A stretch of 64,000 nt of DNA from Ostreococcus lucimarinus (Eukaryota), in the NCBI GenBank assembly GCA_000092065.1, contig CP000598.1. The stretch is one strand, 5' to 3'. The notes under the pieces are model-generated. The model had not been told where the DNA came from. It did not search any database and saw only the letters and a program-made list of their open reading frames with translations. This document shows positions 22,125-49,581 of this stretch, piece after piece. The position numbers and the translations under genes are program-made. How positions within the stretch are numbered: the first letter of the stretch is position 1; each line of letters starts with the position of its first letter.

Positions 22125-22161
22125 TAAGATTTCTCCAGAACGAATCGTGTGAGTGAAGTGG

Positions 22162-22659: not shown

Positions 22660-23092
22660 TTGTCCTGATTACCTATCCATCCCTAAGAAAATATTGTTGC
22701 CAAAAGTGCTCCTCCTGTGGTTTGCAGTCACATTCGAGAGACCATAGGTACTCGTGTCGCTGCGTGGGGTGCAAGGTCCGGGGTGTAGATATCGAACCGC
22801 CTGATTTCACACCTGGACGTTCGTGATCCGACGAGACCTGACGAAATGACGAACTTGTTTTGTCGTCCCCAAATTCGTCAGCCCGTCGTTCGGTCACACT
22901 TTGTGTGTACCAATGATGAAAATGACGAAATGTTAAAATATTTTAATGTTTATTTTTATTTTAGATCTATGACAAGCAACAGTGTAGACCTTTATGAAAA
23001 CAGTTCGTCATTCGTCATTTCGTCAGGATCCAAACCATGGTCTTTTCGGTGTCTTGTTGAGTCTTCATATTGCAAATGTACGAATCACAAAA

Positions 23093-23611: not shown

Positions 23612-23688
23612 CGATGGGTCGCGCCCGCCGATATAACGCCGGCGTTTCGGACACGATCTTGAAAACAAGCACTGGTTGACTTGATTGA

Positions 23689-26220
23689 TTAGGAAACCTT
23701 ATCCGTGCCTTTTACGCTGAGCCCGGTCATGGACGGCTTCGTCGGCATGGTGAACGCGGTGTAGTCCGCCGCCGTGGGCACCGTGATGCTCGTGTCGTAC
23801 GACATCCCGGAGCACGCCGACGCATCGGCGGGAGCAAGCATTTCGACACCACTTTCGAGTTTCAAGACGTACCGGTCGCCAGTCGATGGTTGTTTGAACG
23901 TGGTGCCATCGGGGATCAGGACATCCGGACGGCGATGGTAACCATTGTTGTCGTCGCACTCCTCGTTGCCATACTGGTCGACCTCGGGCGCCGCGCGCGA
24001 ACCAGTCATCGGATTGAAGCAAATGAACGGCGCGTCGCCCAACCAACCGCCTTCGTAACGCACGTTGAGATTCACCCCGGAGTAGTCGGTACCGGATGGA
24101 GAGCGCAGCAACACGGCGTCCGTGGGTATCTTGCCTTGAAGCTGGAGAGGCGCATCCATGAACTTCTTTGACGCGGAGTCCGAAGGATCTTCGAGCCACG
24201 CCATGCCCTCCCAATTGCTTGAGCTCCACTCGTAGTGCACATCCAATTTGTTGGGTTCCTCGCAAACGTCGGTAGTGGCGGTGCAACTCAAAGTGTCGAG
24301 GTTCGCAGGTGTAGCTTCGAAGAGAACCATATGAACTTCTCCCGAGTCAAAGAATGAGTTGGTTGGGTCCATTACGACTTCAGCGCCGAGGGTGCCGGAA
24401 ACGTCTTCCTTCAACGAGCCGGTATCTTTGTCGAAGACGTACTTTTTATAAGTGCTTCGAGCGTCGTTGTATCCGTTCGGCGAGCCGTAGAACTGGCTGT
24501 CGTGACTGCTCGCACTCGATAGCTTCGTCTGGTCGATACACCGCTCGCCGCACGTGAGTGCGAGGTGGCTGCTGAGCGACCCAGGGGGGACGGTTTGCGC
24601 GTCAGACACTTTGAAGTGCGTCAGGTTAAGCAAACTCGCAGAGCCTCGGCCGAAGATGCTTCCCCAGCAGCGTATGATTTGGTTGTCAATGTCAGCCATC
24701 GTGAGCGCACGCGGAGTCGTGATTGAGTTCGTGTTCAGCGATCCACCGTTCCAAGTTCGCTTCGACGACAACACGAGTGCGTTCGCGTCGGAGTCATACC
24801 TGAACTTGACCTCAACTTCTGCAGCGTTAGTGTCATCCCAGAACCAGCCTGTGATCGTCGCCCCTTGGTAGTCGCTTGCGCTTCGCACCGTCGCCGTGAA
24901 CTTGTACAACACCCCGCGTGAGACTTTGAGCCTCTTGTTCACGTTCAGTATCGGATCATCCCAATCGACAATTTCCTCTACTACGTTCCCGTCGGTGAAC
25001 GCGGTTTGAGCGATAGTCTTCTCGGCGGTACTGAGCGCGGTGTCGGAAATGTAGTCGTAATCGGAAATGTAGAGATTGCCCGGATAGTGCAGATCAGCAT
25101 TATACGTCTTGCCGTCGCTGCCTGTAGCCTGAAGATGCACGTAGCTTTGAAGGTTCACCTTCGCCCCGTTGCTGTCGTACGCGCCGTAGCGCTCACCGAA
25201 GAACGATCTGTTCTCGAGTTCATCGCAGAATGACTGCCCGTACGCCTTCGTCTTGACGAGCGTAGCGGTAGTCACCAATTGACCCGCTTGTGTCGAACCA
25301 TTATCAAAGTCGATGGTCTGGAAAGAGGCCTTCGTGATGTCGTTTTCTGCGCGCGATTTAGCACCCGCGGTGAATGAATTGCTGCCTCGTGTCACCTCTT
25401 CCCACCACGTGACCCCGGTCGCCGTGCAATCCGAATCCGCGTCGGTGGTTTCGCACTCGCGACGAACCACACCTTTGATGCGTTGGGACGCGGTCGAGCC
25501 AGTCGGCGATTGGTACGTAAAGGTAAAGTTTTTCACCAAGATTTTGTCAGACTTGATGGCGACGTCATCGCGCTTGACGATCATTTCCGTGTCGATGTTC
25601 GGCATTTCTGGGGTATCGCTGAGGGCTACCCAGACGTTCGTCTTGAAATCACGGGTATCGCTCGCGTCGTCGATGTCTGGGCCCGTGGCGTTGACGACCC
25701 AACGGTACGTAACCTTACCCTTGATTCGGTCGCCGTCGCTGTTGTCACAGTGGAAAGGATCGATCTCAGCGATGTATGGGCCAGTGTTCAGGTTCGCCGT
25801 CCAGTTCACCGAGGCGACGTAGCAAAGAACCATGTTTGGTATCTGGAAAATTTCGGTACTTACAGCGTCGACGAACGTCTCCGCCGGCGGCGCCGTGGCG
25901 TAGTCGGACGTCGAAGAGAACGAAGACACTTCGAGAGGCGTCACCTCGACGAGCGAACGACCATCGATTCGAGACGAACCAGAAGACGTCGTCGAAACAC
26001 CCTCTGACGGGATCATGGTGACTTTACGCGGCGTCAACGCCGCCTTGAGCGCGTTCGTCTTCGCCGCGCCCGACAGCCCGCTGACGGTGGTCGGGGTCGG
26101 GGCCGGGGCCGGGGCCGGGGTCGCGTCGTCATCCCTGAGCCCGATGCCGAGGCCGGTGCCAAGGGCGACCACCACGGCGGCGACACCAACGATCGCGATC
26201 GCAACGCCACGTCTCACCAT
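23689..26220 (-). CDS. 843-aa membrane-anchored protein (copy 2 of 11747..14272)
   Basis: Identical peptide apart from one extra PA dipeptide in the linker (APAPAPTPTT). Confidence 0.75.
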   Translation of the reverse strand: MVRRGVAIAIVGVAAVVVALGTGLGIGLRDDDATPAPAPAPTPTTVSGLSGAAKTNALKAALTPRKVTMIPSEGVSTTSSGSSRIDGRSLVEVTPLEVSSFSSTSDYATAPPAETFVDAVSTEIFQIPNMVLCYVASVNWTANLNTGPYIAEIDPFHCDNSDGDRIKGKVTYRWVVNATGPDIDDASDTRDFKTNVWVALSDTPEMPNIDTEMIVKRDDVAIKSDKILVKNFTFTYQSPTGSTASQRIKGVVRRECETTDADSDCTATGVTWWEEVTRGSNSFTAGAKSRAENDITKASFQTIDFDNGSTQAGQLVTTATLVKTKAYGQSFCDELENRSFFGERYGAYDSNGAKVNLQSYVHLQATGSDGKTYNADLHYPGNLYISDYDYISDTALSTAEKTIAQTAFTDGNVVEEIVDWDDPILNVNKRLKVSRGVLYKFTATVRSASDYQGATITGWFWDDTNAAEVEVKFRYDSDANALVLSSKRTWNGGSLNTNSITTPRALTMADIDNQIIRCWGSIFGRGSASLLNLTHFKVSDAQTVPPGSLSSHLALTCGERCIDQTKLSSASSHDSQFYGSPNGYNDARSTYKKYVFDKDTGSLKEDVSGTLGAEVVMDPTNSFFDSGEVHMVLFEATPANLDTLSCTATTDVCEEPNKLDVHYEWSSSNWEGMAWLEDPSDSASKKFMDAPLQLQGKIPTDAVLLRSPSGTDYSGVNLNVRYEGGWLGDAPFICFNPMTGSRAAPEVDQYGNEECDDNNGYHRRPDVLIPDGTTFKQPSTGDRYVLKLESGVEMLAPADASACSGMSYDTSITVPTAADYTAFTMPTKPSMTGLSVKGTDKVS

Positions 26221-27354
26221 CGTCGCGCGTTGAAATGCGGCGACGACAAGTGGCGACGGTGACGCGATCTGCCCGCACGCAATTCAATTCCTTCGGGTCA
26301 CCTTATCTTTTGGAGCCCCGGAGATGCGACTGTTTACCAATACGATGGTTCCCTTTTTTCGGTCGCGAAAGCGCGCGGTCGCCGGGTCAACCAACACCTT
26401 CATCTCCGGGGGGGATCGGAGATTGTTTTTTACGGTCGCGCGCGCGGTCGCCGCGGACGCCCCCGCCCTCGTCGACGCCGCGCTGACTGTCGCGCGCTGA
26501 CTGACACGCGCTGACCGACGCGCGCGCGATCGAACGCCGCGAGTGGGGAAAGGCGAACGCGCGACGTCGTCGCGCGCGCCCCCGCGCGTCCCGGACCGAA
26601 CCGCGCGTCGTCGTCGTCGCCGTCGCCGTCGCGCGCGTACGCTTCGGACCGCGAAAATCGTTTTTCGTCGCGGGGGGACTGCGGTGCGGGTCGTCTCACA
26701 CTTCGGGACGCCGACGATGGTGTCGTCCGGCGACGCCGACGTCGACGACGCGGTCGAACGACGCCATCGGCGCGGTCGCGGTCGCGCCGTTCGCGATCTT
26801 CTGCCGTCGTCCTCGGCGGCGCGCGCGAACACCGTCCCGCCGTTTGAAGCAACCGGTCGAGGCGCGCTCCCGAGGTGGTTTTGCAAGAGCTGTCGGAAAG
26901 CGCTCGACGTGTTTCGTGATTTCGACGGGGAGCTGAAGACGTGTCGACTGTGTTTGCGCGCGCGCAAGAAAGACGCGAAACGCAAACGCGCGCTACGGCG
27001 GGCGGACGCGAAAAGGTCGGGCGACGGCGACGGTAAAAAAGGCGCGGCTTCGTAGAGAAGCCGAACGCAGGGAACGACGACGAGTCGCGGATGCGCGCGA
27101 AACGATCGATCTTTGATTCGACACGCCTTCGGTATAGTAGTGTGTTTTGCTCTGTAGCCTCGCGTGTTGTAACTACCGTTGTACATTTACATCAATGCGT
27201 CGTCGCGTTCGCGGCGATTTTACGTCGTCGTTCGTTCGCGACGCTTCGTTGGACATGGCGCTTCGACACAGAAGAATCCGACGCGCGCACAGTCCGTGGT
27301 GTCGCGCGCACGTCATCGCACACGTCTCATTTCTTATTTCTCCGCTCCAACTCG

Positions 27355-28270
27355 CTATCCTTCTGTCATAAAGCACACCCGGTCCGCGTCCGGGACGACG
27401 TCCTTCTCGTACTCGACGTTCGCGCAGTACATGTGTATTCGAAACAGCGCGCACCCCGTGCCGCACATGCCCGCGTGCACGTGATCGCCTCGAAAAAATA
27501 CGACGGCGCCGTTCGGCACGGGCACGAAGTCCGTTGCCTTGGTCGCGTTCATGGGTATCGGCTTCGACACGATCATCGAGATCTGCTTATGGTCGGAACA
27601 CTTTCGACCGTCGAGATCCGTGTGCCAGTCTTGGCGCTTCGTCTTGCTCTCGCCCTTCGGGGAGTGGCAATAGATGACGCTCGCGCCGCGTCGGTCGCCG
27701 CTCTCCTTCAACCCGCTCAAGAGCCACCCCTTGCGCGACGCCCGCGCGCTTCAGCGCGGCGCCGCAGTACGGATGGAACCGACGCGAGGTCTCGGGCGCT
27801 TCCCCGCGCGCGTTCACGACGTGCGTCCAGCGACTCTTCGTCCACGCCCCGCCCTTCGCTTCGCGCGCGTCGGTCGAGGGTTGGCGTCGATGATTTCTCG
27901 ACGGATCGTCTTCATCCGTGCGTCCGTGAGGCACCGCTCGAACACGGCGTAGCGCTCTTTGGACGGATCGAACATGGCCGCGCCGTGTGAGGTGCACTGT
28001 TTCCCCTTGATCTCCGCCGCGCTCGCTCCCGCCGCGCGCGCGTGTCCAGACCCACGGCGTACGCGAGACGGCGCGTCGTCGCCGCGCTCGTCGGCTTCCA
28101 CGCGTTCGGGAACCTGACGTGTTTGGGTAACCCACGAACGGCGCGCGCGGCGAGCGCCTCCAGGCGCGCGCGCCGCGCGGGAACTCTTCACCGTGCGCGC
28201 GTTTCCACTCGGCGAACACGCCGAGGGCGAGCGCGACTACGCGTCGACGGTGCGTTCCGCGAGTTCGCAC
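27355..28270 (-). pseudogene. Possible Fe(II)/2OG-dioxygenase or cupin-like gene whose reading frame changes at least twice
   Basis: Protein-like pieces lie in three frames. In order: FDPSKERYAVFERCLTDARMKTIRREIIDANP; then WTKSRWTHVVNARGEAPETSRRFHPYCGAALKRAG; then WLLSGLKESGDRRGASVIYCHSPKGESKTKRQDWHTDLDG..FFRGDHVHAG. The family call is weak. Confidence 0.25.
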
Positions 28271-28350
28271 CCGCGCCGGCGACGCCTGATCGTCTCGGCG
28301 CGCGATCGTCGCGGCATGGGACGCGTTGGAGGGCGGGGGTCGGGACGCGT

Positions 28351-28428
28351 CGCGGTTTCCCGCGCCGCGCGTCGCGCGTCGTCGGGTGCTGCGGGGACCG
28401 ACCCCGCGGTTTTGTGCGAAATGAAATC
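28351..28428. repeat. Second copy of the 801-875 GC-rich repeat
   Basis: See 801-875. Confidence 0.8.
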
Positions 28429-29262
28429 GTTCGTCTAACCGTACTGCTGCGAGTAGTCTCGGTCGTTCAAGTAAAGGTGGCGCGCCCAGTGCTGGTCGGC
28501 CGGAAACACCACGCGCGAGGGGAGGGGCGGCTGAAAATTCGGTTTCTGAGGTATTCTCGAGCGCGTGGTTGTCCCTCCCGAGCGCGCGTTTCGCCGTGGA
28601 ATCGTCCTTCGTCGAGTGCTCGTCGAAGCGTGACTCACCGTCGTCCGCTGACGTGGCGTCACGAGTCGATACGCGATTTCGCGGGTCACTCTCCCCGATT
28701 CGTGAACCGCCAAACGTAAATTAATATCTTTGCGCGCGAAAAAAGATCTTTTGACAGCTGTCAAAAAGCCGTTCGAATGCGCGAACGCTCGAATGGCGCC
28801 GCGCCAGCAGTTCGCCGCGCGCGCGACGAGGCGACGAGTCGATCGACCCGATTCATTGATTTCCAAACATCTTTGATTCGCGATAAAACGCTCGCTCGCT
28901 CGCTCGCTCGCGCCATGAGTGAACCTACGGAAACGAAAACGGCGGACCCGTTGAATTGGAAGAATGAGGAAAACGTCAAGCGCTTCGTTCGACCGAGTCG
29001 CTGGTTGTCTCTCGATATCGCGGGCTACCCGGTGCGTGACACATTTCTGTCGATCGAATTTCGCTCGCGCGTCCTGCGCGAAGCGCGCGCGTAGGACGCG
29101 TTTGGGTCGAATGCACCGCGGCCCGATTTTCGAAATTATTTCGCGCGCGATGACACCTTCGTCACGAGTATCGTCGCTTCTGGCGACGTGCGCGCGCAAA
29201 GACAACGAACTGGCAAATACAAAATCCATCATCGACTGACTCGCGAATCCCGCGCGACGTAG

Positions 29263-31488
29263 ATGTTGCGCATCAACTGGGTCTCCGCCGCGCTCGCGTC
29301 CTCCCTGCTCTGGGGCTTCATCATCTGGGTGCTCGTCGACGAGACGGGATCGTCAAGCGAAGTGACGCGTTGGACGAAGTGGATCACGAGTAACTTTACG
29401 TGGCTGTACGTCGTCACGCAGGATGTCTGGTTTATCTTCATCTTGTATCTTTTGGGTACAAAGTACAAAGACGTGAAACTCGGTCGCGACGACGAAGAAC
29501 CCGCCTTTGACTATTACGAATGGTTTTCCATGATGTTTGCGTGCGGTATCGGCGTTGGTCTGTACACTTTCAGCGTCATGGAACCCATCAGCTACTACCG
29601 CGGCGTCGTGTCAAAGCTTCCGATCGTCAACGACGATCAGCGCGCGCAGCAGGCGATCACGCTCACGCTCTTCCACTGGGGCCTTCACGGTTGGATTCCG
29701 TACGTCCTCGTCGCGATGACTTTGGGCGTCGTGTGCTACCGTCACGGACGTCCGATGACTATCCGCTCCGCGTTTTATCCGCTCTTCGGCGAAAATATCA
29801 ACGGTCTCTTCGGCGACGCGATCGACGCGTTGTCCATCGCGACGACGACGTTCGGCGTGTGCACGTCCCTCGGGCTCGGCGTCACGACGATCGCGTCTAC
29901 GATGAACCGCTTGAACAGCGATGTGGATCCAAACGATGACGCCACCAAGATCCTAATCATCTGGTTGATCACTGCCGTCGCATGTACGTCGGTCATTTTG
30001 GGTTTGAAGAACGGCATCAGAAGGCTTTCCAAGATTACGTTCTCCATCGGTCTCATCTTGCTCTTTGGAATCATCGTCGCGGACAACCCTTGGTTCTTAC
30101 TCAACTCTTTCGTGCAATCGATGGGTCATTACGTGCAATGGGTCACGCAGCTCGGCTGGGACACGGACACGTGGCCCGCGTCCGAAGCCATCATGCGCGA
30201 CACGGGCGCTTGGCACTACCTCGCTTGGGGCGCCAAGGGTGAGAGCGATGCGATCGCGCGGACGCTTTCGACGCGTGGCGCCACCGCCCTGACCGACACT
30301 GAGCTTAACACCATGTGGGGCGTGCGAACCGACGACGGTTTCATGAACACGTGGACCCTCTTCTATTGGGGGTGGTGGATTTCGTGGGCCCCGTTCGTCG
30401 GCATGTTCATCGCCAGGATCTCGCGTGGTAGAACCGTCGGTGAAGTCATCAAGGGTGCATTCATCGCGCCTATTTTGTTTGGTTTCTTTTACCTCACCGT
30501 TTTGGGCTCCCTCGGAATCAAAATGGAGCGCATCGCCGAGCTCGCGTTGACGACGGCGCCGGCGGACGTCGACTGGCGAAGCGGCGACGTCAAGTGCACC
30601 ACCCTCGGGTACGCCGCTGACGGGACGCCGACCACCGCCGGATCGATTCAGCTCGCGAAAGAGGGCTACTACGCTCTGTCGTGCCGTCCGACATCGTCGC
30701 ACATCCTTGACATCGTTGAGCCTTACGGCAAATTATCGACGCTCTTTCAAGCGATGATTCTCATCGCCATCATCCTGTACTTTATCACGTCGTCGGATTC
30801 TGGATCGTACGTCGACGACTTGATCTCCGCCATGGGCTACGAAAATCCGCCAGTGTTGCAAAAGGTTTACTGGGCGTGCACCGAAGGCGCGCTCGCGCAA
30901 GCTTTGGTGACTTCCGGCGGCTTGAAAGTGGTGCAAGGCGTCTCCATCGTCTGCGGTTTGCCGTTTACGTTTGCTCTCAACTTTATGGTCGTCTCTCTCT
31001 GGCGCGCGCTGAAGGATGAATTCAACGACGAGGCGCAACAAAAAACTCGCAAGGGGTTCAATACGTGCATGCTGGACGTCCTCGAAGGGTACGAGCCGGA
31101 AACCGCAGGCGCGAACGCGCCGGATCGCAAAACGCGCGTCGTCGCCGCATTGAAAAATTTCATCTACCCGTTCGACGCGATTCGCAAGGCGAAGATCGCC
31201 GTGGGGACGGATGAAAAATTTGCCTCCATCAACGCCGCCGTGGTCACTGGCGTGCTGTGGACTGCGATCGGTCTCCTCGCGTCCACGAAAGCCGGCGCGG
31301 GCGCGCACTCCGTGGCGTGGCTCTTCTACCTCATCTTGATTTTCTGCATCGCGAACATTCGCCGAGAAGTTCGCGCGTCCAGAAACATTCTCGGTAACAT
31401 CATGGAGGATTACACCGCCGCTGCTTTGTATCCGCTCGCGCTCGCGCAGATGGAACACGAGGCTGAATCCGACCCGAAGCTGGCGTAG
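29263..31488 (+). CDS. BCCT-family transporter (betaine/carnitine/choline type)
   Basis: ATG verified. 741-aa multi-pass protein with FHWGLHGWIPYVLVAMTLGVVCYRHGRPMTIRSAFYPLFG and the signature-like WTLFYWGWWISWAPFVGMFIARISRGRTVGEVI. Confidence 0.9.
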   Translation: MLRINWVSAALASSLLWGFIIWVLVDETGSSSEVTRWTKWITSNFTWLYVVTQDVWFIFILYLLGTKYKDVKLGRDDEEPAFDYYEWFSMMFACGIGVGLYTFSVMEPISYYRGVVSKLPIVNDDQRAQQAITLTLFHWGLHGWIPYVLVAMTLGVVCYRHGRPMTIRSAFYPLFGENINGLFGDAIDALSIATTTFGVCTSLGLGVTTIASTMNRLNSDVDPNDDATKILIIWLITAVACTSVILGLKNGIRRLSKITFSIGLILLFGIIVADNPWFLLNSFVQSMGHYVQWVTQLGWDTDTWPASEAIMRDTGAWHYLAWGAKGESDAIARTLSTRGATALTDTELNTMWGVRTDDGFMNTWTLFYWGWWISWAPFVGMFIARISRGRTVGEVIKGAFIAPILFGFFYLTVLGSLGIKMERIAELALTTAPADVDWRSGDVKCTTLGYAADGTPTTAGSIQLAKEGYYALSCRPTSSHILDIVEPYGKLSTLFQAMILIAIILYFITSSDSGSYVDDLISAMGYENPPVLQKVYWACTEGALAQALVTSGGLKVVQGVSIVCGLPFTFALNFMVVSLWRALKDEFNDEAQQKTRKGFNTCMLDVLEGYEPETAGANAPDRKTRVVAALKNFIYPFDAIRKAKIAVGTDEKFASINAAVVTGVLWTAIGLLASTKAGAGAHSVAWLFYLILIFCIANIRREVRASRNILGNIMEDYTAAALYPLALAQMEHEAESDPKLA

Positions 31489-31844
31489 TAACGTCGACGC
31501 CGTCCAAGACTTCTTTTTTCCAAACCGTCCTTTTATTAATCGAGCTCGATGACGACGAGTCGCAGACTTTTCGTTCATCAAGAGCAATCAAATCACGTTG
31601 GGTGAGCGATCACCGTTCACGGGCCCGCGAGGCCGGTGAGCTTTTACCATCGGTTGACCTGCGTCGTCGTCACCCGTACGCGTTGGAACAAATCATACGT
31701 GTTGTGCGTGTTGTCCACCGTCGCCGCTCGAACTGCATCCAGCGTCGACGGTGCTCGTTGTTGTGTTTGACTTTATTACATTTCTCTCATCGGTCCTACG
31801 TAATACTTTGGCTGACATGAATTAATTTAATAACCACAAGAAAT

Positions 31845-32471
31845 TTACTTTACGAAACCGTCGTCGTCCGCGCGCCGCGTCCGCGCGTTCGCGTCGTTCA
31901 TCTTGAAAACACCCGCGAGATACCGATAGATGAATCCAGAGTACGGTACCACCGCTCGCCGGTCTCTCGCTCGCGACGCGTCGCCGACGGCGGTGGACGT
32001 CGTGCGACGTTCTGCGTCGGGAACGCGCATGGCCTCCGACGCGCCCGGGACGTAGTTTTCGTCGCGCGTCGTCTTCGTGTCACCGCCACGTCCGACCGAT
32101 TTCTTTGACGCCTTCACCGACTTGAGGAAATGCTTTTGCGCGTGCGATCTGATTTGCGCCGCCGTCCTCGTCCCGACGTGTGTTTCGATCCGTTTCCAGT
32201 CGCGATCGTACAACTCGAGCGCGCGTAAAAACTTGTCGTGTTCGATCCTCGTCCACGGCGCGCGCGTCTTCGTTCGCACGTACGGTTTTCGCGGTTTCTT
32301 TGAACGCATCAGCGGCGCGCGCGCCGTGGTGGCTCTCGCCCGCGCGGCTTCGTTCTCGCTCGCGATTTTTCGTACGGCGGCGTCGACGAGCGCCCGCACC
32401 GAGAGCGACGACGACGACGACGGCGACGTCGTCGCGTGTTTTTCGCTGTTTGGGCGGTCGTCGTTCGTCAT
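31845..32471 (-). CDS. Single-repeat MYB transcription factor, SHAQKYF class (CCA1/RVE-like)
   Basis: ATG verified. [45 protein letters not shown]. Confidence 0.8.
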
Positions 32472-33773
32472 CGGCGACGGCGCGTCGGCGTCTGCCGCGT
32501 GACGAACTACAAACGCCCGATGAGACTCCGAGAAGACGACGACGCGCGCGGACGCGCGTCCAATCTCCAGGGCGCGTCGTCATACAACCACTTTATATAG
32601 AATAATTCGAATTATTATACTGCCTCAAAATCAATATAATGACGACACGCATACCAGTTTACCGTAGAAATGGTAATAGCCCTTTCGCCAATCGAAGCTC
32701 GCGGGTAAGGTCGGTCGATACACACACGTCACGTTTCCTCAGGCTGAGAGCGCCACGCCTTTTGACGCGAGCGATACTGCCTTGAGCCTTTCTTCACGAG
32801 TTTCACCGTAGCGCATCGCACAAGAAAACACAAAAACTCAGCCCTGCGTAGACAGACGAGGGTGGCGCCGGAGTATGACGGCGAAACGCGCCGCACGAGT
32901 TCAACGGGTTTCTCTCCAGAGCACTGGAACGGCGCGTTTTTTGTCGCGAATCCACGCAGCCCTTCTCTACCGCCGTAAAAGGTAAGTGCTTGTTGAAAAG
33001 CCGTGATTGCTTGCTGCTGCGTTGTCGCGTCAGCCGCTTCGCGCACGTATAAGCCCGCCGCGAGCCGTGAAAGTAAACGGGTACTCCGTGATGAGCGCTG
33101 TTTTTGGAAATCGGGATCCTCGTGGCTCCCAACGTTGTTAGCGAAAGGATGGAACGTGCATTCAGACCGTCGCCGTGTTCGGCTCCCGTATATTTGCCAC
33201 GCACTCGTCGTGCGTATACTTCACCTTGTAGTAGGGGTCGTTTTGCTTGCGCTGGTTCGCAACGAAACCCCGGCCGCGACCACGTCGAGCACACGATCGT
33301 TGCCGTGATAACCTGCGATGGTTGCGCGTAAAATGCGAGCAGCGCACCGCAGCGAAGGCAGCACCGCTCAACGCGTACCGGAGAAAGGTATACGAAGCGA
33401 TCGCCGCGGGCGTCGCGAGATACGTTTGGTATCCTAGTTTGAGCGGTCTATCGGCGTCGTAGAAAACTTCCGGGGCGGGGAGTATGGAGTTCATTCAGCC
33501 AATGCTTACTCGCCGTAGTCGGTTCATCTGTCGACATGCGTGCTGTGACTCAGGATGCGCGGCAGTGGCGCGTATCGTTAGACTTGCGACGGTGTGTCTC
33601 GCCAGAAATCAAAAGCACACATTTATTGAGTCGGGATGGCGTGGTGTTGTAAGTATTTACGTGGATTTAGCTCATGGCTATTAAATGCACGCCGAGGAAG
33701 TATGCCACACATACGACGCATCGTGAGTGCGACAAATCTAACATTGCTACCGCGAGAACGTTCGAGTGTGTCT

Positions 33774-34700
33774 TCAAATCAGCGCGACGCCAGGAGACCA
33801 CGGAAAGCGTCCCGCGAATCGTCGCCGAGGACACGCGTCTAAATACGTCCAAAACGATTTGAGTGATTTCACCGTTGAGCTATATGACGCGCGTTCGTTG
33901 AACGGATCCAGTGCTTGCCCCGTCGACCCGACGTCGTTTCGACACCCGTACGGATCGCGCGCGAACGCATCGCACGCTTTCGCTTCGCGCGTCGCCAGTT
34001 CGTTTTCGTTCACCGCCGCGGTACCGATGTAGGTCATATTGCTCCAGGAATACCCCATCGCGTCGAGATGAAGCTTTTCGAACCGCGCGCGCTCGACGTG
34101 AAACCCGACGACGGTGATCTTTGAAGGAAACTTTCGAGCGAGTTGAAAGAACCGACACACGCTGAATAACGCGTGCTCGAACCCGTCGTTCGCGTGTTCT
34201 TCCGTGAACGTCCTAGACTCGACCTTCGCGTCGACGCCGAACCAATCGTTCGCCCTGGCGACTTGCCAATACGAGCTCGCCCGAGTCATCACCGCGCCGG
34301 CGTCGATTGATTTTCCTCCACTGAAAACGAGCACTGCGTGTGGGTTCCTCGCTGCCTCGCGAACACCGATCTCGATGTGTTCGACCAGCGACCGTACGTA
34401 TCCTTCCGACGACGTTTGATCGCGCTCTAAAGCCCAGTCGCCCGGGTCTTCCGCGGCTTTCGCGAAATCGCTACCCAAGTAAACCGCGCGCGCGGGAACG
34501 ACGACGAGCTCGTCCACGTCCGTCACCGCGGGCACTATCTTCTTCTCCTGTGCGCTCAGTCGCATCACCGTGTGCGTGATCGCTGCTCGCGGCGCATGAT
34601 TCGTCCTCCTGAGCGCTTCTATCGTGACGCAACACACGCACAGAAGAAACCAGAGCGAACGTTCGAGGTTAAGAATCCTCGTCGCGCGCTTCGCCCACAT
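33774..34700 (-). CDS. DUF218 (YdcF/ElyC-like) domain protein
   Basis: The first ATG is at 34700 (the track start at 34730 is GTG). AVLVFSGGKS..SSYWQVARANDWFGVDAKVESRTFTEEHANDGFEHALFSV..KITVVGFHVERARF fits the DUF218 pattern. Confidence 0.55.
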   Translation of the reverse strand: MWAKRATRILNLERSLWFLLCVCCVTIEALRRTNHAPRAAITHTVMRLSAQEKKIVPAVTDVDELVVVPARAVYLGSDFAKAAEDPGDWALERDQTSSEGYVRSLVEHIEIGVREAARNPHAVLVFSGGKSIDAGAVMTRASSYWQVARANDWFGVDAKVESRTFTEEHANDGFEHALFSVCRFFQLARKFPSKITVVGFHVERARFEKLHLDAMGYSWSNMTYIGTAAVNENELATREAKACDAFARDPYGCRNDVGSTGQALDPFNERASYSSTVKSLKSFWTYLDACPRRRFAGRFPWSPGVALI

Positions 34701-34929
34701 CCGAGCGTATCGAGTGAACGCATACGTCACGCGATCGCGGACTCGCGATGCGTACGTCGACGCGTTCGGCGCCGCGACGTCGTCGACTCGTCGGCGGACG
34801 CGCGCGCGTGTCCTTCGTCGCGCGCTGTGCAGGGCCGGAGTTTTTCACGCCCTCGGCTGCGTCAAACAAAAACCCGTCCTCCGAAACACACCGGCGTCCT
34901 CACACCGCCGCGCTCGCGGCGTCGCCTCG

Positions 34930-37266
34930 ATGCGTCTGCGCGTCGCGTCGCTCTTCTCCGGCATCGGCGGTCTCGATCTCGGGCTCGAGCGCGCCGGACA
35001 CGACGTGGTGTTGCGCGTCGAGCGCGACGCGCACTGTCGCGAGTTGCTTCGACGGCAATACCCCGACGGCGCGCTCATGGACGACGTCGCCGCCGTCATG
35101 CCGCGCGATCTCGACGGCGTCGATCTGCTCGCCGCCGGGTTCCCGTGCAACGATTGCTCGTTCGAAAACGCGGCGCGACCGGGTTTGGAACACGGCCGCG
35201 ACACGCGTCTCGTGCGACACGTCTTTCGCCTGCTTCGCGAGAGACGCGTGGAGTGGGTGCTCCTGGAGAACGTCGTCGGGCTTTTGCGTTGGCACAGGCG
35301 GCGTCGTCGGAACGAGCGCCAGGGAGAGAACACGTCGCGGTCGCGCGATGCGCGTGCGCGGCCGCCGGCGATCGATCACATCGTCACCGAATTCGAAAAA
35401 CTCGGCTACCGCTGGGCGTATCGCGTGGTCGATTTGCTCGCCTTTGGCGTGCCGCACAAGCGCCGACGCGTCTTCATCGTCGCGAGCGCGCACGGCGACC
35501 CGCGAGACGTGCTTCTGAGTCAAGACTCGCAGTGTCAAGGCCGGTGCGAGACTTTCGCGGCGCACGCGCGCGTCCACCGCCGTCGGTGTTACGACTGCTT
35601 CAACGCGCCGCCGCGCGACGCCGCGACGGTCGAAGCCGTGTCCATCGACGTCGGCGAGAACAGACGACCGCCTCTGCGCGACATTTGCCAGTGCTTGACG
35701 ACGTCGAACGGGCGGCGGACGTGCGTGGTGACGCGCGCGGCGAACGACGCGCGCGAGACGTCGACGACGCGCGCGCTCGCCGTCGAGGACGCCGAACGCC
35801 TGATGGGATTCGAGCCGGGGTACACCGCGTCGTGCTACCCGATCGCCGACGCCAACGGGCGCGCGCCGATGAGTTTCAACGTCGACGCGCAAACGCGCAA
35901 ACGGTTCGCGTTGTTGGGGCTCGCGTGCGCGGTGCCTCAGAGTGCGTGGCTCGGCGAGCGCCTGCGAAACCCGTACGCCGTCAAGTTTCCGTACGCCGCG
36001 CTGTGCGCGCCGTTCCGCCGCGCGTGTCCGGGCGGGGACGACGACGACCAGGAAGGCGCGTGGCCGCTCGCAGCGTACAACGTATTCGAGCTCGACGACG
36101 CGGACGAGCCGAGATGGAAAAGCCGCCGACGCGCGCCGAAGACGCTCTCGGAATCCCCCGTCGTGCGCGCGTTCGTGCCGCTGGGTGAGTTTTTGAAGTT
36201 TCAACGTCGCGCGCGGGACGTCGATCCCGAAACTTTGCGCACGTACGCGCGGCGACTCCGCGCGAGCGGCCACGACGACGTCGACGAGCTCGTGCGTCTC
36301 GCGTTGCTCGGCGACGAGCGACGCGATGGCAAGCGTCGGCGGATCGCGGCGCCGCACGTCGGTACTACCGTTCGTCGCGCCGAATCCGTCTGGTCGTCGA
36401 GCGACGACGAACGCGATGATTCCCGAGACGACGATGCGATGCCGACGTTCGGCGCGCGCGCGTGGGTGCGGTGGCGAGGCAAACGCGGCGACGTGGCGAC
36501 GCGTTGGCCGTGTCTCGTGCTCGACGCGGGCGAAGATGGGGTGCGAGGCGTGACGACGCATCGCCACGTGGTATTTTTCGACGCCGCGCGTTCGCACGCG
36601 CGCGTCAGATCGACGGATATCGTCGGCCGATTTGGTGGAGACGACGACGACGGCGACAATATATCAGAACGCGCGGACATCGTCGGCGCGATCGAGCGCG
36701 CGAGGGTGTGGAAACGCGACGATCGAAATCACGAGTACGACCCGATCGCGTGGTCGTTTCGCGAACCGACGGCGTGTCTCGAGTGCGCAACGTGTCGCGA
36801 AGACGCGCCGCCCGCGGTGTCGACGCCCGATCGCAGTCGCGGCGGCAACGACGGTGTGTTGTCGCGAAGTCTTCGATCGAGCTTTGCGTCGGATTCAAAA
36901 ACATCATCATCATCGAAGTGTCCGCAAGCGACGGAAATAATTCCTCGCGCGCGCCTCGGGCACGTCGGCGCGACGCTCGCGTTGCGCCGCGGCGACGCCG
37001 TCGGACGAAGACTGCGCGTGTTTTGGCCCATCGAAAACGCGTTTTTCGCGGGCACGATCGCGGCGTTCGACAAACAAACGTACACGTTTCGCGTCGATTA
37101 CGACGACGGCGACGTCGAGGTGGCGTTCAAGCCGTGGATGGAGTCGGTGTGGCCGCTGAGGGGTGAAGATGAGTTCGCGACGTGTGGGGTGAAAACCCCT
37201 CGTGCGATCACACCATTCAATCAAAACACGCCAGAAATCTGCGAAGCACCAAAGACTCACTTTTAA
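34930..37266 (+). CDS. DNA (cytosine-5) methyltransferase with C-terminal PWWP-like and Tudor-like modules
   Basis: ATG at 34930 (MRLRVASLFSGIGGLDLG, motif I). Motif IV GFPCNDCS, motif VI LLENVVGLL, motif VIII PHKRRRVFIVAS, motif X-like GLACAVPQS. PWWP-like AWVRWRGKRGDVATRWPCLVLD..VVFFD. Tudor-like RVFWPIENAFFAGTIAAFD..FRVDYDDGDVE. Confidence 0.85.
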   Translation: MRLRVASLFSGIGGLDLGLERAGHDVVLRVERDAHCRELLRRQYPDGALMDDVAAVMPRDLDGVDLLAAGFPCNDCSFENAARPGLEHGRDTRLVRHVFRLLRERRVEWVLLENVVGLLRWHRRRRRNERQGENTSRSRDARARPPAIDHIVTEFEKLGYRWAYRVVDLLAFGVPHKRRRVFIVASAHGDPRDVLLSQDSQCQGRCETFAAHARVHRRRCYDCFNAPPRDAATVEAVSIDVGENRRPPLRDICQCLTTSNGRRTCVVTRAANDARETSTTRALAVEDAERLMGFEPGYTASCYPIADANGRAPMSFNVDAQTRKRFALLGLACAVPQSAWLGERLRNPYAVKFPYAALCAPFRRACPGGDDDDQEGAWPLAAYNVFELDDADEPRWKSRRRAPKTLSESPVVRAFVPLGEFLKFQRRARDVDPETLRTYARRLRASGHDDVDELVRLALLGDERRDGKRRRIAAPHVGTTVRRAESVWSSSDDERDDSRDDDAMPTFGARAWVRWRGKRGDVATRWPCLVLDAGEDGVRGVTTHRHVVFFDAARSHARVRSTDIVGRFGGDDDDGDNISERADIVGAIERARVWKRDDRNHEYDPIAWSFREPTACLECATCREDAPPAVSTPDRSRGGNDGVLSRSLRSSFASDSKTSSSSKCPQATEIIPRARLGHVGATLALRRGDAVGRRLRVFWPIENAFFAGTIAAFDKQTYTFRVDYDDGDVEVAFKPWMESVWPLRGEDEFATCGVKTPRAITPFNQNTPEICEAPKTHF

Positions 37267-37382
37267 ACGCTTTGGTTGTGGCGTATAACCAACGATGGAG
37301 GAAACTTCAACAACACGTCAACTCTGCTCGCGCGTTGTTTTCTCAAAGCGCTTTGACGAAGACTATCTCAATGCGAAACTTG

Positions 37383-38300
37383 TCAGCAGTTGACAAAAAA
37401 TAGTTTACAAAGATTTCGCGCGCGCTCGATGACTTCCATTTCGTCGTGCGTAGCGGCGAACTCCAATTCAGGCCACGTCACTAGAGGCGCGCGCTTTCCC
37501 GCGTGCGCGTTATGATTCTTTCGTCGTTCGATGGCGCCTTTGAAATCCAAGTCTTCACACCCGATGAAATGAGAACGCGCGCATAACATTTCGAACAGTT
37601 TTGAATCGTTCGCGTCCTCAATTTTGAACCAACATTCCGCCGCTTCGTATCCAAGATTTGTGTATGTCGTCCACCACTCTAAACATTGCACGTCGTGTCG
37701 CAAAGAGTTGAAAACGCTTATGTTGACCTCAAAATCGCGACGAATGTCCTTACCAGCCATTTCAGAGTTGAAATTTGTATCAAATTGCCACTTCGTTCCT
37801 CTGCAGCTGCGTATCACTTGGAGCGGATGTCGAACGATGAGGAAAGTATTCGTGAATACTTCGATTGATCTAATGGGAAATTGTGGTGAACTCGCCAGCC
37901 AGTTTGAGCTTCCGTTCACTCCGAATGTCTCGTGACCTATGTCTACGCCAACATCGCGAAATACTTGAGATACAAAGCCGGTTCCTGAATAGCCGGCTCC
38001 GGTTATGAGAGCTGCGGACGCGATTGCGGATTTGTCGCCCACCCGTACCGGTTTTGAACGACGTCGGAACGACGTCTCGCTGAGAGCATCTTCTGAGAGA
38101 CATTGGTCTAGGCATGCGGCACAAACCGTTTCTGATGCAGTAACAAAGAACGAATCGTTCAAATTAACGTACCCCGTTAGCAATAAGGCGAGAATAGTCG
38201 ACAGAAATCCACCGACCCTGGTAAAGCGCTCTCTGACTTTGACGAGCGAATACTCGTCACGAGTGACTCGAACTTCACACGCCAGCGGCGATTCGATCAT
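37383..38300 (-). CDS. Type II membrane protein, sulfotransferase-like (tentative)
   Basis: ATG verified. Anchor FLSTILALLLTGYV. GAGYSGTGFVSQVF resembles the 5'-PSB loop and IVRHPLQVIRS resembles the 3'-PB motif of sulfotransferases. Confidence 0.4.
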   Translation of the reverse strand: MIESPLACEVRVTRDEYSLVKVRERFTRVGGFLSTILALLLTGYVNLNDSFFVTASETVCAACLDQCLSEDALSETSFRRRSKPVRVGDKSAIASAALITGAGYSGTGFVSQVFRDVGVDIGHETFGVNGSSNWLASSPQFPIRSIEVFTNTFLIVRHPLQVIRSCRGTKWQFDTNFNSEMAGKDIRRDFEVNISVFNSLRHDVQCLEWWTTYTNLGYEAAECWFKIEDANDSKLFEMLCARSHFIGCEDLDFKGAIERRKNHNAHAGKRAPLVTWPELEFAATHDEMEVIERARNLCKLFFVNC

Positions 38301-45976: not shown

Positions 45977-46127
45977 GAATCAGTAAGATCCGTGTTCATG
46001 CCTAGAGATTTGAGCGCTCGGTGACAGCGGCAGCTTCCTGAAACGCTCCTCCAGACCCGGACGAGAGCGAGCCGTGAAGCCGTGCGCAAAAGTTCGGCGG
46101 TCGTCGATAGGTCTGGCAACGTCGGTC

Positions 46128-47060
46128 ATGCGTTGGTTGAGGGGACGTGGTGTCAAGGCGATAATGTGCGTCGCCCTTGTCGCAGGTTTCGCCAAGGTAC
46201 CAGATCTGCACGTCAATAAGTATACTATGACACAGACACTGCAAGGCGACGGCTTTGGTTCACAGTTTCAAAATATCACATCTACCGCGGCTGCTCTGCA
46301 CGTCAATAAGTGTACTATGACACAGACACTGCAAGGCGACGGCTTTGGTTCACAGTTTCAAAATATCATATCTACCGCGGTTTTCGCTCAAACCTTGAAC
46401 AAACACTTTTGCGTGACCCCTATCGAAAGCATGGAGCACAACTACGACAATCGCTCAACGTTCCTTCGAGAAGTCAGCGAACTGATTAATTTACCAGTAC
46501 TTTCAAGTCAAGAGGACATGGACATTGAAAAGTGCGAGGTTAAAAAAGGCTGGCTGGATAGCTACATAGTTCAGGAAGCAAATCAGTTGGACGTTCGTAC
46601 AAAATTGGGTAACATTCGAAAGCAGTTCTTGGGTAACAAGCGCTCGTTGTCGGAACTTCGTAAACACGCTGCCGTGCACATCAGGAGGCAGAATTCTTTT
46701 GATAATCGAAACACTGTTTCTCATGATGAAGTCGTGTGCTTTGTGATGAGGGAAATTCTCACTCAAAACAGCAATATTCAGTTTCATGTATTTAGCCAGG
46801 GCGATATTTCGGAGTTTTGGCGCTACCAGAACGATTCAAGAATCGTCCTACGTCTCGACGAACCCATCAACGTGACGTTCACTGAAATGGTTGTCGCCAA
46901 AATTTTGGTCACAGCCACGTCGTCATTTAGCTATGCAGCAGCACTTCTCTCAGAGGGTGAGATATGGGCCCCAAGACCGTTCTGGCACAACTACCCTTCC
47001 TTCTGGAAGACATATCAGCTTTCTCGTACATTGTCTAACTTTGAGACATGCCTACCATGA
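46128..47060 (+). CDS. Fucosyltransferase-like glycosyltransferase (GT11/GT23-like motifs), tentative
   Basis: ATG at 46128 (MRWLRGRGVKAIMCVALVAGFA). GDGFGSQFQNI resembles the G-x-G-N-Q-x-F-Q motif and AAVHIRRQNSFD resembles the HxRRxD motif of alpha-1,2-/NodZ-type fucosyltransferases. Confidence 0.4.
   Translation: MRWLRGRGVKAIMCVALVAGFAKVPDLHVNKYTMTQTLQGDGFGSQFQNITSTAAALHVNKCTMTQTLQGDGFGSQFQNIISTAVFAQTLNKHFCVTPIESMEHNYDNRSTFLREVSELINLPVLSSQEDMDIEKCEVKKGWLDSYIVQEANQLDVRTKLGNIRKQFLGNKRSLSELRKHAAVHIRRQNSFDNRNTVSHDEVVCFVMREILTQNSNIQFHVFSQGDISEFWRYQNDSRIVLRLDEPINVTFTEMVVAKILVTATSSFSYAAALLSEGEIWAPRPFWHNYPSFWKTYQLSRTLSNFETCLP
46206..46380 (+). repeat. In-frame 90-bp tandem duplication (2 units)
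   Basis: ctgcacgtcaataag.atactatgacacagacactgcaaggcgacggctttggttcacagtttcaaaatatca.atctaccgcgg occurs twice (starts 46206 and 46296), encoding LHVNK(Y/C)TMTQTLQGDGFGSQFQNI(T/I)STA. Confidence 0.9.
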
Positions 47061-48372
47061 TACCAGTTTTAATTGTGGGGTGTTAATGCTATCGTTTGTG
47101 AGACACACTCGAGCGCCCTGTAGACTACTCGACTCTATCGCAGTACAAGTTCAGACAACACCAGGCAGAGGGCGTAGGCTAAGCCCCTTTTGCCCGTTCC
47201 CTCTGCCGCACTCTAAGAGCCTACTGCTGTCACAATGGTGCACGCGCTAGTAAGTATATTTTTCCTTCGGGGGTAACCTAGGCGAGTTTTTCTTATTCTA
47301 AAGCTAGTTAGTCAGAGTACTTTTTTATTTTGTGATGGTGACCGAATACAGCGAACACGGTGAAGTCGTCACGTGTGCAAGTCAGTGGCAGTGGCGGGTT
47401 AATGACTTTTCTAGATGAATTCTTTAGTTTGTACAATTCATTGGACATCGATGACCATGTTGATTGGCAGATGTTTAGCACTGCATTACACGAGTACGTG
47501 TTGCTGCTTTGAAAACAATCGGTGGTGACGATTTGTGAGACGAAACAAGGAGCGTATATCTGTGACGTCAGAATACGACGATGCACGGCATAACATCTTG
47601 GAAATTGAGCGCACGTGAACTCTCTGACATAGCACTGCATCGCAAGAATCTCTTAGTCGTCGTTGAGCGTTGTAAAACACCACACGCGCGTCAGCGTACA
47701 TTGTCTGTACAAACTGTCAAATTGTGATTGCGTGAGTACTTTGACGCTCAAGTGAAATCGAAGAAAAAATCCAGGTCCAACATGTTATTCAAAACAACTT
47801 ATTCATGCGTGTAAGTGCATGCAATGGCCGAAAGAGTCAGCGTTGCGGAATCCAGTCAAAGCAAGTTCAGGCTTCCTCAAAACGTTTAACATAATTTTTT
47901 GAATTCTATTCCCGGGTCCATTGGGCGTGAGGGTCGGCGCCACGTTTGCGAAACAGTCAAAATCACGCATGTCGACGAATCATGACTCATCACGCAGTCC
48001 CTCCGCCCCAGCATGATGTTCTGAAATCTGTGACGATCTTTGACGACCGAGTGCGCCGTCGACACGTGCTGCACACCGCTGGAAATCGGTGAACGATGTT
48101 AAAACGAGTGTTGAACGCGTGATCGTCGTTTCACAAGCGCGTGCACGGGTCGTGTGCGATCGCTCGCTCATCAGATGACGCATTTCTGAAAATGGGCGAA
48201 ATAATGTGCGTGTATGTAACCAGTCACTAAAGTGCCTACCTAGGTTACGATTTTGTCAGTTTCGGATCAAAACCGATTGCTGATGGTGATCTTGATTATG
48301 AGCGCGCACAGAGCTGATTCTACCATCATAACGAATCATCCTGACACTTTCTTCACCACGAACTGTCTGTCT

Positions 48373-49581
48373 CTACAACCCCTGGCAGAGCACTTGAGCA
48401 ACATGCCGCATGTGGCGAAATCGCATGTTCAAGAATAAATCGTCGGCGCAATCATGATTCAAACCTCTTGGGAGGTATTCAAAGCCCAACGAGGTGATAA
48501 AGTCGCGAAGTTCATGCTCGCCATGCTGATCAGCGTAGCCGGTAACCACTAGCTCCGGTTGAATCCAGACAACTCGTTTCGATAGCCAATGCCGAGCCCC
48601 TTTGATAATCTCTAAGTCATGGCCCTGTGCGTCAATCTTCAACATGTCGATATATTGGACGCGGCCACCTTGAACACCTAGAGACTCTGACTTTGGAACT
48701 GACACGGACCAAGGCAGAAGGGTAAAGAAATCATGAAGATTCCAAACAGGGACCTGAATTTCATTCTGCACGTCAAACTTGACCGGTTTGTGTAAGCTTG
48801 ATGTCCCTGGATCACCAGCGGTCGCGTAAAATGTCTGCAAGTGTAGAGGAGAAGAGCCCATCGCCACACAAGATAAAAAGTAGCGTTTGCCAACTAAGTC
48901 CAACGGCACACAGAGGTCTCCTGTGGAGCAAGCACAACCCTTCAGTATGTTCTTGCAACTTGTCGGATTAGGCTCAAACGCAAAAACTGTCAGCTGATCC
49001 GGATCGGAAGTGCTGCTGAACCATAAGGCGGAGTTTGGAGCGTTGTAAGACTCACCAATAGATATTTTCACACGCCGCGTATGCCTCGGCAGTGCAATTT
49101 TTCCACGCCGCAGGTGCACTGGAAGTAAGGCACGCGTGGCGTGACGAGTGCGCGAGATATCTTTGATACGTTCGGCCCCTACGAGTGGATCACTTTTTGG
49201 TTCTTCACAGCTACTCCCAAGTGAGTCGCTGTACGATTCAGTCACAGGAAGTCCGCGTGCTGACGCAAACGCAAGGAGTACGAGCGAACCCAGCGAACCG
49301 AGCAAACAGCCCGCAACCAACCTAAATTTCATACTGAATTTCATTCTGACAGGGACTCGCACGTTCTCGTGTCGCTTAAAGCCCGTATTTTGCTCCATCT
49401 CTTCGCGGTCTAAATACTGTATAAAGTGGGTGTGTAGTACGCTCTTTTCCGTTCTTCGGCCTGGGTGTTCAGTATGCTGTTTCCGGTCTTCAGTTTCTTC
49501 ATCTCGACGGCTTCGGGGCGACCACTTTGGCCGGCGACGAGTTTGCCCTGTACCATAGGACATCGTGGCCGCACACAGCAT
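48373..49581 (-). CDS. FkbM-family methyltransferase, second member
   Basis: ATG at 49581 verified; an alternative ATG at 49344 precedes the anchor MKFSMKFRLVAGCLLGSLGSLVLLAFA. VFAFEPNP and MLKIDAQGHDLEIIKGA are FkbM motifs. Confidence 0.7.
   Translation of the reverse strand: MLCAATMSYGTGQTRRRPKWSPRSRRDEETEDRKQHTEHPGRRTEKSVLHTHFIQYLDREEMEQNTGFKRHENVRVPVRMKFSMKFRLVAGCLLGSLGSLVLLAFASARGLPVTESYSDSLGSSCEEPKSDPLVGAERIKDISRTRHATRALLPVHLRRGKIALPRHTRRVKISIGESYNAPNSALWFSSTSDPDQLTVFAFEPNPTSCKNILKGCACSTGDLCVPLDLVGKRYFLSCVAMGSSPLHLQTFYATAGDPGTSSLHKPVKFDVQNEIQVPVWNLHDFFTLLPWSVSVPKSESLGVQGGRVQYIDMLKIDAQGHDLEIIKGARHWLSKRVVWIQPELVVTGYADQHGEHELRDFITSLGFEYLPRGLNHDCADDLFLNMRFRHMRHVAQVLCQGL

Follow-up and report, generated by a model that had tools for sequence, protein, structure and literature searches.

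Animal DNMT3 enzymes carry their PWWP domain on the N-terminal side of the catalytic domain, alongside an ADD domain. The gene analyzed here occupies positions 34930 to 37266 (+ strand) of a 64,000-nucleotide stretch of Ostreococcus lucimarinus DNA (assembly GCA_000092065.1, contig CP000598.1; the whole stretch is called the window below), and an earlier note made from the sequence alone had read it as a C5 DNA methyltransferase with PWWP-like and Tudor-like readers placed behind the catalytic domain. A methyltransferase lineage of chlorophytes and charophytes was named ChloroDNMT in 2025 (Mol Biol Evol, PMC12344493); the accessible portion of that paper describes it as often carrying a PWWP domain, gained independently of animal DNMT3, mentions neither a mono-CXXC nor a Tudor domain in that description, and in its Supplementary Table 1 gives O. 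tauri one ChloroDNMT and zero DNMT5, DNMT1, DNMT3 and every other class. A 2012 survey of PWWP proteins (PMC3457860, Fig. 2d) had included two putative DNA methyltransferases of O. tauri with PWWP domains, among them XP_003079195, as kin of bacterial methylases. In the same alga, Yau et al. (2016; PMC5082852) reported on chromosome 19 a "5-cytosine methyltransferase", ostta19g00045, with best matches in Mamiellales, which shows raised transcription in virus-resistant lines (log2 fold change 3.46, ~11-fold) and lies near a DUF285 "bacterial surface" gene, ostta19g00660.

Comparison of the window protein with these systems indicates, from its sequence, that it is not a rearranged DNMT3 but probably a ChloroDNMT, a member of a known and named lineage, as judged by the chlorophyte distribution of its close homologues, by our neighbor-joining tree and by the O. 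tauri entry in the table of PMC12344493. The reading that we favor, with moderate confidence, is that of an intact gene of this green-algal type, with its reader domains behind the catalytic domain, present as a fast-evolving copy on an outlier chromosome (here called type B), whose product would carry out Tudor-guided CG methylation of transcribed chromatin. The integrity of the gene, its motifs and folds, its paralogy, its chromosomal setting and the breakpoint at its end are matters of observation. The lineage is already known, and earlier work has described what is probably the orthologue in O. tauri; what is new, to the extent of our search, is the split into two paralogues with erosion of domains on the outlier chromosome, the RDM15-type pocket of the Tudor domain, and the precise agreement in position of the adjoining step in G+C content (GC) with a haplotype breakpoint.

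The gene is intact and intronless and encodes 778 residues. It lies in a single long open reading frame (ORF) on the + strand (34624-37266), in which the protein starts at the ATG at 34930, and the resulting N-terminus, MRLRVASLFSGIGG, lines up in the alignment with the starts of all full-length homologues; since the protein is collinear with its homologues along the whole length, there is no sign of introns. An identical protein, together with 13,473 nt of identical DNA, is present in a contig of the Logan assembly of SRR23274481. The features are as follows.

34930..37266, + strand: complete ChloroDNMT gene, outlier-chromosome (type B) paralogue, delimited by the ORF, the homologue N-termini and the Logan match.
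34930..36324, + strand: bacterial-type C5 cytosine methyltransferase module, residues 1-465, with a C-terminal extension in common with actinobacterial homologues.
34954..34971, + strand: motif I, FSGIGG, residues 9-14, binding of S-adenosylmethionine (AdoMet).
35137..35160, + strand: motif IV, GFPCNDCS, residues 70-77, with catalytic Cys73; Asn replaces the bacterial Gln.
35266..35274, + strand: motif VI, ENV, residues 113-115; E113 and N114 invariant.
35452..35475, + strand: motif VIII, PHKRRRVF, residues 175-182; R178 and R180 invariant, His replaces the bacterial Gln.
35533..35601, + strand: Cys4 insertion, C202-x3-C206 ... C220-x2-C223, in the target-recognition region (alignments A1 and A2).
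35788..35940, + strand: motifs IX-X, DAERLMGF (residues 287-294; 35788-35811) and LLGLACAVPQ (residues 328-337; 35911-35940).
36325..36441, + strand: charged linker, predicted disordered; predicted local distance difference test score (pLDDT) below 50 at residues 467-497.
36442..36714, + strand: degenerate, shortened PWWP barrel with helices, residues 505-595.
36763..36939, + strand: mono-CXXC zinc module, C616, C619, C622 ... C664, with a disordered insert (PF15626, alignment A3, pLDDT).
36997..37152, + strand: RDM15/PDS5C-type Tudor, residues 690-741; pocket W699, F706, Y724, D726, D728 and E730.
37153..37266, + strand: non-conserved C-terminal tail, residues 742-778, in strain-specific low-GC DNA (end of haplotype homology, GC, pLDDT).
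25901..37152, no strand: higher-GC island (61%) with the methyltransferase, a BCCT transporter, a Myb protein and ORFs of unknown function.

The catalytic domain has the characters of the PF00145 class, with motifs I (FxGxG), IV (PC), VI (ENV) and VIII (RxR) in linear order on a methylase fold, and the motifs by which the earlier note had recognized it (FSGIGG, GFPCNDCS, ENV, RRR.F and AVP) are all in place and in that order. In alignments of 18 to 55 homologues the key residues of the motifs do not vary; the AdoMet site, the catalytic Cys73, ENV and RxR are intact, and the module is, as judged by its sequence relationships, of bacterial descent. The best matches by sequence among solved structures are to bacterial M.HhaI, at E 5e-12, versus 9e-4 for DNMT3A, and bacterial homologues, some of them fused to Vsr, align over the catalytic core and the C-terminal extension to about residue 430. 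Unlike the algal protein, bacterial methylases of the Dcm/M.HhaI type (including the Vsr-fused actinobacterial ones) have neither the Cys4 insertion nor any of the reader tail. The insertion (C202/C206/C220/C223), which is specific to the eukaryotic branch and which like the mono-CXXC module at residues 612-670 had been overlooked in the earlier note, is invariant or nearly so in the algal sequences of alignments A1 and A2; it is probably a zinc knuckle, putatively zinc-binding, in the target-recognition region. Neither the canonical motif X (GN[AS]V) nor the Gln of motifs IV and VIII is present, their places being taken by GLACAVP, PCN and PHKRRR. These replacements (PCN for PCQ, HxRxR for QxRxR and GLAC for GNAV) are common to both Ostreococcus paralogues, whereas the bacterial relatives keep the canonical forms. 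The Asn of motif X is near-universal among C5 methyltransferases.

In the C-terminal region the Tudor-like segment proposed in the earlier note was borne out by a match to the PTM/DIR17-type Tudor model PF21743 (residues 703-730, 28.3 bits against a gathering cut-off of 27.2), with the barrel present. The pocket of Arabidopsis RDM15, a protein that reads histone H3 monomethylated at lysine 4 (H3K4me1), is formed by W616, Y623, Y641, D643, D645 and E647 and aligns without gaps with W699, F706, Y724, D726, D728 and E730, so placing in the algal domain, to judge from this alignment, the three aromatic residues and two Asp that mark an H3K4me1 pocket. All residues of the H3K4me1 and H3R2 (arginine 2) pockets of RDM15/PDS5C (PDB 7DE9) are thus kept, with one Tyr-to-Phe change, and an H3K4me1 preference of the algal Tudor may be expected from its RDM15-type pocket. 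The two proteins differ in that RDM15/PDS5C is a cohesin-associated factor that also acts in RNA-directed DNA methylation in Arabidopsis, whereas the algal Tudor belongs to a methyltransferase. Pfam also places a mono-CXXC domain (PF15626) at residues 612-670, with E 2.3e-21 and 76 bits against a cut-off of 20. Its cysteines C616, C619, C622 and C664, which form the C-x2-C-x2-C pattern with a distal Cys, are invariant in A3, an alignment of the family's C-terminal region with 20 members; PF15626 is a narrow model, which matches one of these 20 members (the window protein), with P0001 and the O. tauri protein P0004 added by precomputed Pfam. The insert at residues 631-660, within the mono-CXXC, has pLDDT below 50.

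The PWWP-like segment fared less well under the domain hidden Markov models that the earlier note had suggested as a check, which detect the Tudor and miss the PWWP: the segment of the window protein has no PF00855 match at E<=1. Its identity is nevertheless recognizable in the relatives, 18 of 20 of which match PF00855 at the same position (best E 1.4e-12), and in the A3 profile, which matches among solved structures the PWWPs of NSD2 (3e-13) and DNMT3B (7e-9) and also the Tudor 7de9. The predicted structure has the five-stranded barrel and C-terminal helices of the PWWP fold, and the position behind the catalytic domain is kept. Relative to the family the segment is shortened, and it does not have the relatives' inserted loop, the Trp of "aWv", the "PF" motif or the Asp after "FFG". 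The segment is thus a degenerate PWWP; this part of the earlier domain reading stands by position and profile and fails by direct match.

Homologues at E <1e-40 were found in chlorophytes only. They include Ostreococcus, Bathycoccus, Cymbomonas, Trebouxia, Chlorella, Auxenochlorella, Coccomyxa, Dunaliella, Haematococcus and other genera, span Mamiellophyceae, Trebouxiophyceae, Chlorophyceae and Cymbomonas with a like layout, and have catalytic domain, PWWP, CXXC and Tudor as their standard order; in a neighbor-joining tree (408 catalytic-region columns, 200 bootstraps) the chlorophyte sequences separate from the bacterial outgroup. Because the chlorophyte homologues share this order and the ChloroDNMT lineage has been named, the arrangement is the norm of a known independent lineage, and what the earlier note called an unusual order is unusual with respect to animal DNMT3 and standard within chlorophyte ChloroDNMT. 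The window protein agrees with that lineage as a chlorophyte-restricted, bacterial-type C5 methyltransferase of a kind with PWWP often behind the catalytic domain, and differs as an Ostreococcus-specific second paralogue on an outlier chromosome with a degenerate PWWP. With animal DNMT3A/B it has in common C5 DNA methylation and a PWWP reader, as seen in the match of the family profile to the DNMT3B PWWP; in contrast to DNMT3, however, the catalytic domain is nearer to M.HhaI than to DNMT3A, the readers are C-terminal, and the PWWP fusion is judged independent, and Pfam gave no ADD domain match in the window protein. A DNMT3 with permuted domains was accordingly ruled out, the catalytic domain being bacterial-type and the order that of the family. 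Separately, the homologue set contained metagenomic proteins of ~980-1030 residues (P0022-P0037 and P0045-P0048) with PF00145 only and 53-55% identity over 12-18% of the query, which may represent another algal methyltransferase family with one conserved block in common.

Within Ostreococcus the tree resolves two paralogues, with Bathycoccus branching outside both. The type A clade (bootstrap 94) includes O. mediterraneus as well as O. tauri XP_003079195.2, whose contig measures 835 kb; the type B clade (bootstrap 98) includes the window protein with its 98% variant P0001 and, besides these, O. tauri XP_003084365.1, P0002 and Ostreococcus sp. RCC789. O. tauri therefore has one member in each clade, two by our count (XP_003079195.2 and XP_003084365.1) versus the one listed in the ChloroDNMT table. 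Type A, the copy found on a core chromosome, shares with the window protein the layout, the Cys4 insertion, the CXXC cysteines, the Tudor and ~60% catalytic-region identity, but has an intact PWWP (type A proteins are among the 18 that match PF00855) and, at the O. mediterraneus locus, uniform GC and housekeeping neighbors (CobN, PPR, RbcX, MPC), whereas type B in O. tauri adjoins glycosyltransferases. Over the same columns, the catalytic region of the window protein is 67% identical to that of O. tauri type B, as against 79-84% for type A across Ostreococcus lineages, which marks type B, by sequence divergence, as the faster-evolving copy. Its readers have eroded as well: type B has its PWWP deleted in O. 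tauri, in P0002 and, together with the CXXC, in RCC789, and the Tudor is the only reader retained in every type B lineage examined. O. tauri XP_003084365.1 is like the window protein in its clade, joined with a bootstrap of 100, in its place on a small outlier chromosome and in having mono-CXXC and Tudor (58% identity overall), and unlike it in its length of 625-630 residues, its wholly deleted PWWP and its downstream neighbors, which are non-homologous to those of the window. The type B copy most likely goes back to a duplication inside Ostreococcus and was relocated to the hypervariable "viral immunity" chromosome, and ostta19g00045 is probably XP_003084365.1, the type B orthologue, as chromosome, annotation and neighbors suggest.

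In the mechanism that we propose, the Tudor would dock in transcribed chromatin on a low-methylation-state lysine of the H3 tail, H3K4me1-like; further contacts, to DNA, would come from the CXXC unit and the basic PWWP remnant; and the catalytic domain would then methylate CG sites of the accessible DNA, the outcome being a share in the gene-body, CG-only methylome of Ostreococcus. Histone specificity, CG target and enzymatic activity are inferences. Published data give this scheme its context. In O. tauri 99.995% of 5-methylcytosine lies in CG context, concentrated in gene bodies with ~180-bp periodicity, and H3K4me1 is a gene-body mark in plants; Tudor-guided CG methylation of transcribed chromatin would fit such a methylome. 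A 2025-26 preprint describes the outlier regions as insulated compartments resembling topologically associating domains (TADs), with reduced methylation and elevated expression, and puts CpG methylation in O. lucimarinus at 22.2% for standard regions, against 19.2% for BOC1 and 16.2% for SOC1.

Several points weigh against this interpretation. Because motifs X, IV and VIII depart from Asn, Gln and Gln, activity could be altered by the Leu, Asn and His found there, as far as the sequence can tell, and our literature search found no published activity, target sequence or histone binding for any ChloroDNMT. DNMT5 has been proposed in the literature as the CG methyltransferase of Mamiellales. The PWWP, aligned with that of DNMT3B, keeps two of the three aromatic cage positions (W526 and F549), with Ala as the first aromatic, has Ala at the equivalent of D266 and fails the Pfam model, and its predicted fold may be flattered by AlphaFold alignments rich in relatives with intact PWWPs. 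The equation of ostta19g00045 with XP_003084365.1 rests on no identifier match. Lastly, the near-identical haplotypes of the window gene differ by 15 nonsynonymous and 10 synonymous codons, which suggests relaxed constraint.

The last of these points bears on one alternative, namely that the outlier copy is a redundant duplicate drifting to loss of function, with the core paralogue doing the work. Its faster evolution relative to type A, the deleted or degenerate PWWP, the CXXC lost in one lineage, the 15:10 ratio and the exchange of its C-terminal tail for junction sequence are all what such decay would leave behind. However, at least five lineages, which had separated before the RCC789 split, still have an intact ORF, the catalytic motif residues and the Tudor pocket are all conserved, the 15 replacements all lie outside the motifs, the PWWP barrel and the Tudor, and the O. 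tauri gene is transcribed and regulated. We consider decay unlikely.

The setting of the gene among glycosylation genes of the small outlier chromosome, the ~11-fold rise of the O. tauri orthologue in resistant lines, and rapid evolution with domain turnover, as is typical in host-parasite conflict, raise a different possibility, that of a virus-responsive or defense methyltransferase of the immunity chromosome, which would mark prasinovirus DNA or switch the expression states of resistance genes. Since many genes of the region rise together in resistant lines, however, the induction may be a passenger effect; IMG/VR holds no close viral relatives, and the histone-reading tail suggests host chromatin as the substrate, so that this explanation appears quite improbable. 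A recent viral origin of the gene is likewise unsupported, the IMG/VR scan yielding only three loci, 32-39% identical and matching the catalytic domain alone. A more elaborate proposal treats the type B ChloroDNMT as a virus-responsive epigenetic switch: a de novo CG methyltransferase guided by histones, whose gene would lie on the hypervariable immunity chromosome and be regulated along with it. Its rapid evolution and loss of reader domains would retune the chromatin that it marks, and the enzyme would help to set the heritable states of expression, resistant or susceptible, of the glycosylation clusters. We offer it as speculation and think it very doubtful.

The earlier note had further proposed that the enzyme, reading histone marks next to a region full of repeats and pseudogenes, is a plausible silencing or boundary factor, a role that it called speculative, and had placed the end of the gene 4 bp before a drop in GC. 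In its explicit form the proposal is that the enzyme acts in cis, methylating the adjacent low-GC, repeat-rich DNA and so insulating or silencing that DNA. Mean GC is 53% for the window and 61% for the island, between flanks of 53.5% (left) and 50% (right), and the methyltransferase is the GC-richest gene of the island (66%; 78% at third codon positions). GC is 67.2% in 34930-37152, 50.9% in 37153-37266 and 48.7% in 37267-38300; the drop thus starts not behind the gene but at 37153, within the ORF, 113 nt before the stop and directly behind the Tudor, 37153 being the base after the last conserved Tudor codon (KPWMESVW ends at 37152). A metagenomic haplotype (L007) that is 98.6% identical to the window is collinear with it from 28926 to 37153, where homology is lost (L007 8224/8225); a different FkbM-type gene follows in L007, whose tail has no nucleotide match in the window and, by tblastx, one weak match (49 residues, 41%, E 3e-4) near 163-309. 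The L007 methyltransferase ends eight residues past the breakpoint, at 745 residues, which is the commonest length in its cluster (8 of 15 members listed, against one of 15 for 778). Because homology to L007 ends at 37153 and the L007 protein stops at 745 residues, residues 742-778 are junction sequence; pLDDT is below 50 for residues 746-778. The GC step is therefore a strain-specific structural-variation breakpoint of a hypervariable chromosome and not a functional boundary element.

What speaks for a cis-acting boundary is that the type B gene stands at a GC step in O. tauri as well as in the window (locus L002, a gene of 64% GC followed by 48.5% GC downstream), that the preprint reports sharp epigenetic and TAD-like boundaries for the outlier regions, and that Yau et al. 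(2016; PMC5082852) put ostta19g00045 forward as a candidate silencing methyltransferase. The same authors, however, judge the rise of the O. tauri gene upon activation of its surrounding region to be contrary to silencing by methylation. The junction differs between strains, as L007 shows, and there is no conserved downstream synteny among type B loci, as judged by tblastn of the window neighbors against L002, L003, L005 and L006, the only match being that of the upstream ORF 26284-27186 in L005 (25 residues, E 8.5e-5). The adjacent low-GC DNA, moreover, is not made of pseudogenes. From 37383 to 64000 it is a dense array (45-53% GC) of intact sugar-modification genes, with two FkbM methyltransferases, a GT17 protein, a nucleotide-sugar transporter, a STELLO glycosyltransferase, two GDP-mannose-dehydratase/epimerase-like genes and a UDP-glucose dehydrogenase, and such a glycosylation gene content typifies the small outlier (viral immunity) chromosome in Mamiellales. 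Because the downstream genes are intact and the published methylomes show the outlier regions to be hypomethylated (and more expressed; SOC1 16.2% versus 22.2% in standard regions), the boundary or silencing role is unsupported, and a diffusible enzyme need not act beside its own gene. We regard it as very improbable; the earlier note was essentially right about the domains, a C5 methyltransferase with readers of the Royal family behind it, and its reading of function lacks support. That the enzyme, its DNA-methylase fold notwithstanding, methylates RNA (tRNA) in the manner of DNMT2 or DNMT6 is hardly credible, and this reading was rejected on account of the companion domains, for according to PMC12344493 DNMT2 and DNMT6 are consistently without companion domains, which chromatin-directed enzymes gain, whereas this protein has three chromatin or DNA reader modules and as its closest sequence relatives bacterial DNA methylases, some Vsr-fused.

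The large repeats of the window lie upstream of the gene, at 1-26 kb, and consist of a segmental duplication of ~12 kb and 75-nt repeats in a DUF285 gene. The duplication is direct (10191-14371 and 22125-26319, spacing ~11,940 nt, blocks 76-100% identical) and holds near-identical minus-strand ORFs of 841 residues (11747-14272) and 843 residues (23689-26220) with no Pfam match; its right end, ~26319, falls where the GC-rich island has its left edge. The DUF285 gene is a 2607-residue ORF (1545-9368, + strand) with 13 DUF285 (BspA-like repeat) stretches, in which some blocks of the 75-nt tandem repeats are 100% identical. A dispersed repeat of 69-130 nt occurs in four copies, 70-100% identical (1236-1304, 14938-15006, 18046-18114 and 19795-19863), each ending in GCTAGGGTTTAGC, in which a single telomere unit of plant type, TTTAGGG, is contained; the repeat might act as a promoter element resembling a telo-box, or be a small mobile element. 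AT-rich DNA at 14663-14782 forms a palindrome of two 60-nt arms, 88% complementary and without spacer, and at 20053-20844 five tandem 132-nt units, up to 95% identical, lie within overlapping ORFs on both strands (AT skew 0.33). No CpG depletion footprint of methylation is seen across the window, where the observed/expected ratio is 1.0-1.9; the ratio is lowest at 46001-58000 (1.04-1.25 versus 1.4-1.9 elsewhere), which is also where GC is lowest (45-50%).

For the locus itself, the striking GC step is to be taken as a structural-variation breakpoint and as no evidence of function for the gene that adjoins it. For the family, the RDM15-type pocket of the Tudor yields a specific prediction, binding to H3K4me1, and in marine picoalgae, which are abundant, the ChloroDNMTs may work with DNMT5 as its de novo partners or take its place. 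If the published count of zero for DNMT5 and the other classes in O. tauri is correct, the two ChloroDNMTs together would write the whole nucleosome-linker CG methylome of this alga. The type B copy, reported as induced in virus-resistant lines through its probable O. tauri orthologue, offers a genetically tractable candidate for the part that DNA methylation may play in the virus-resistance switch.

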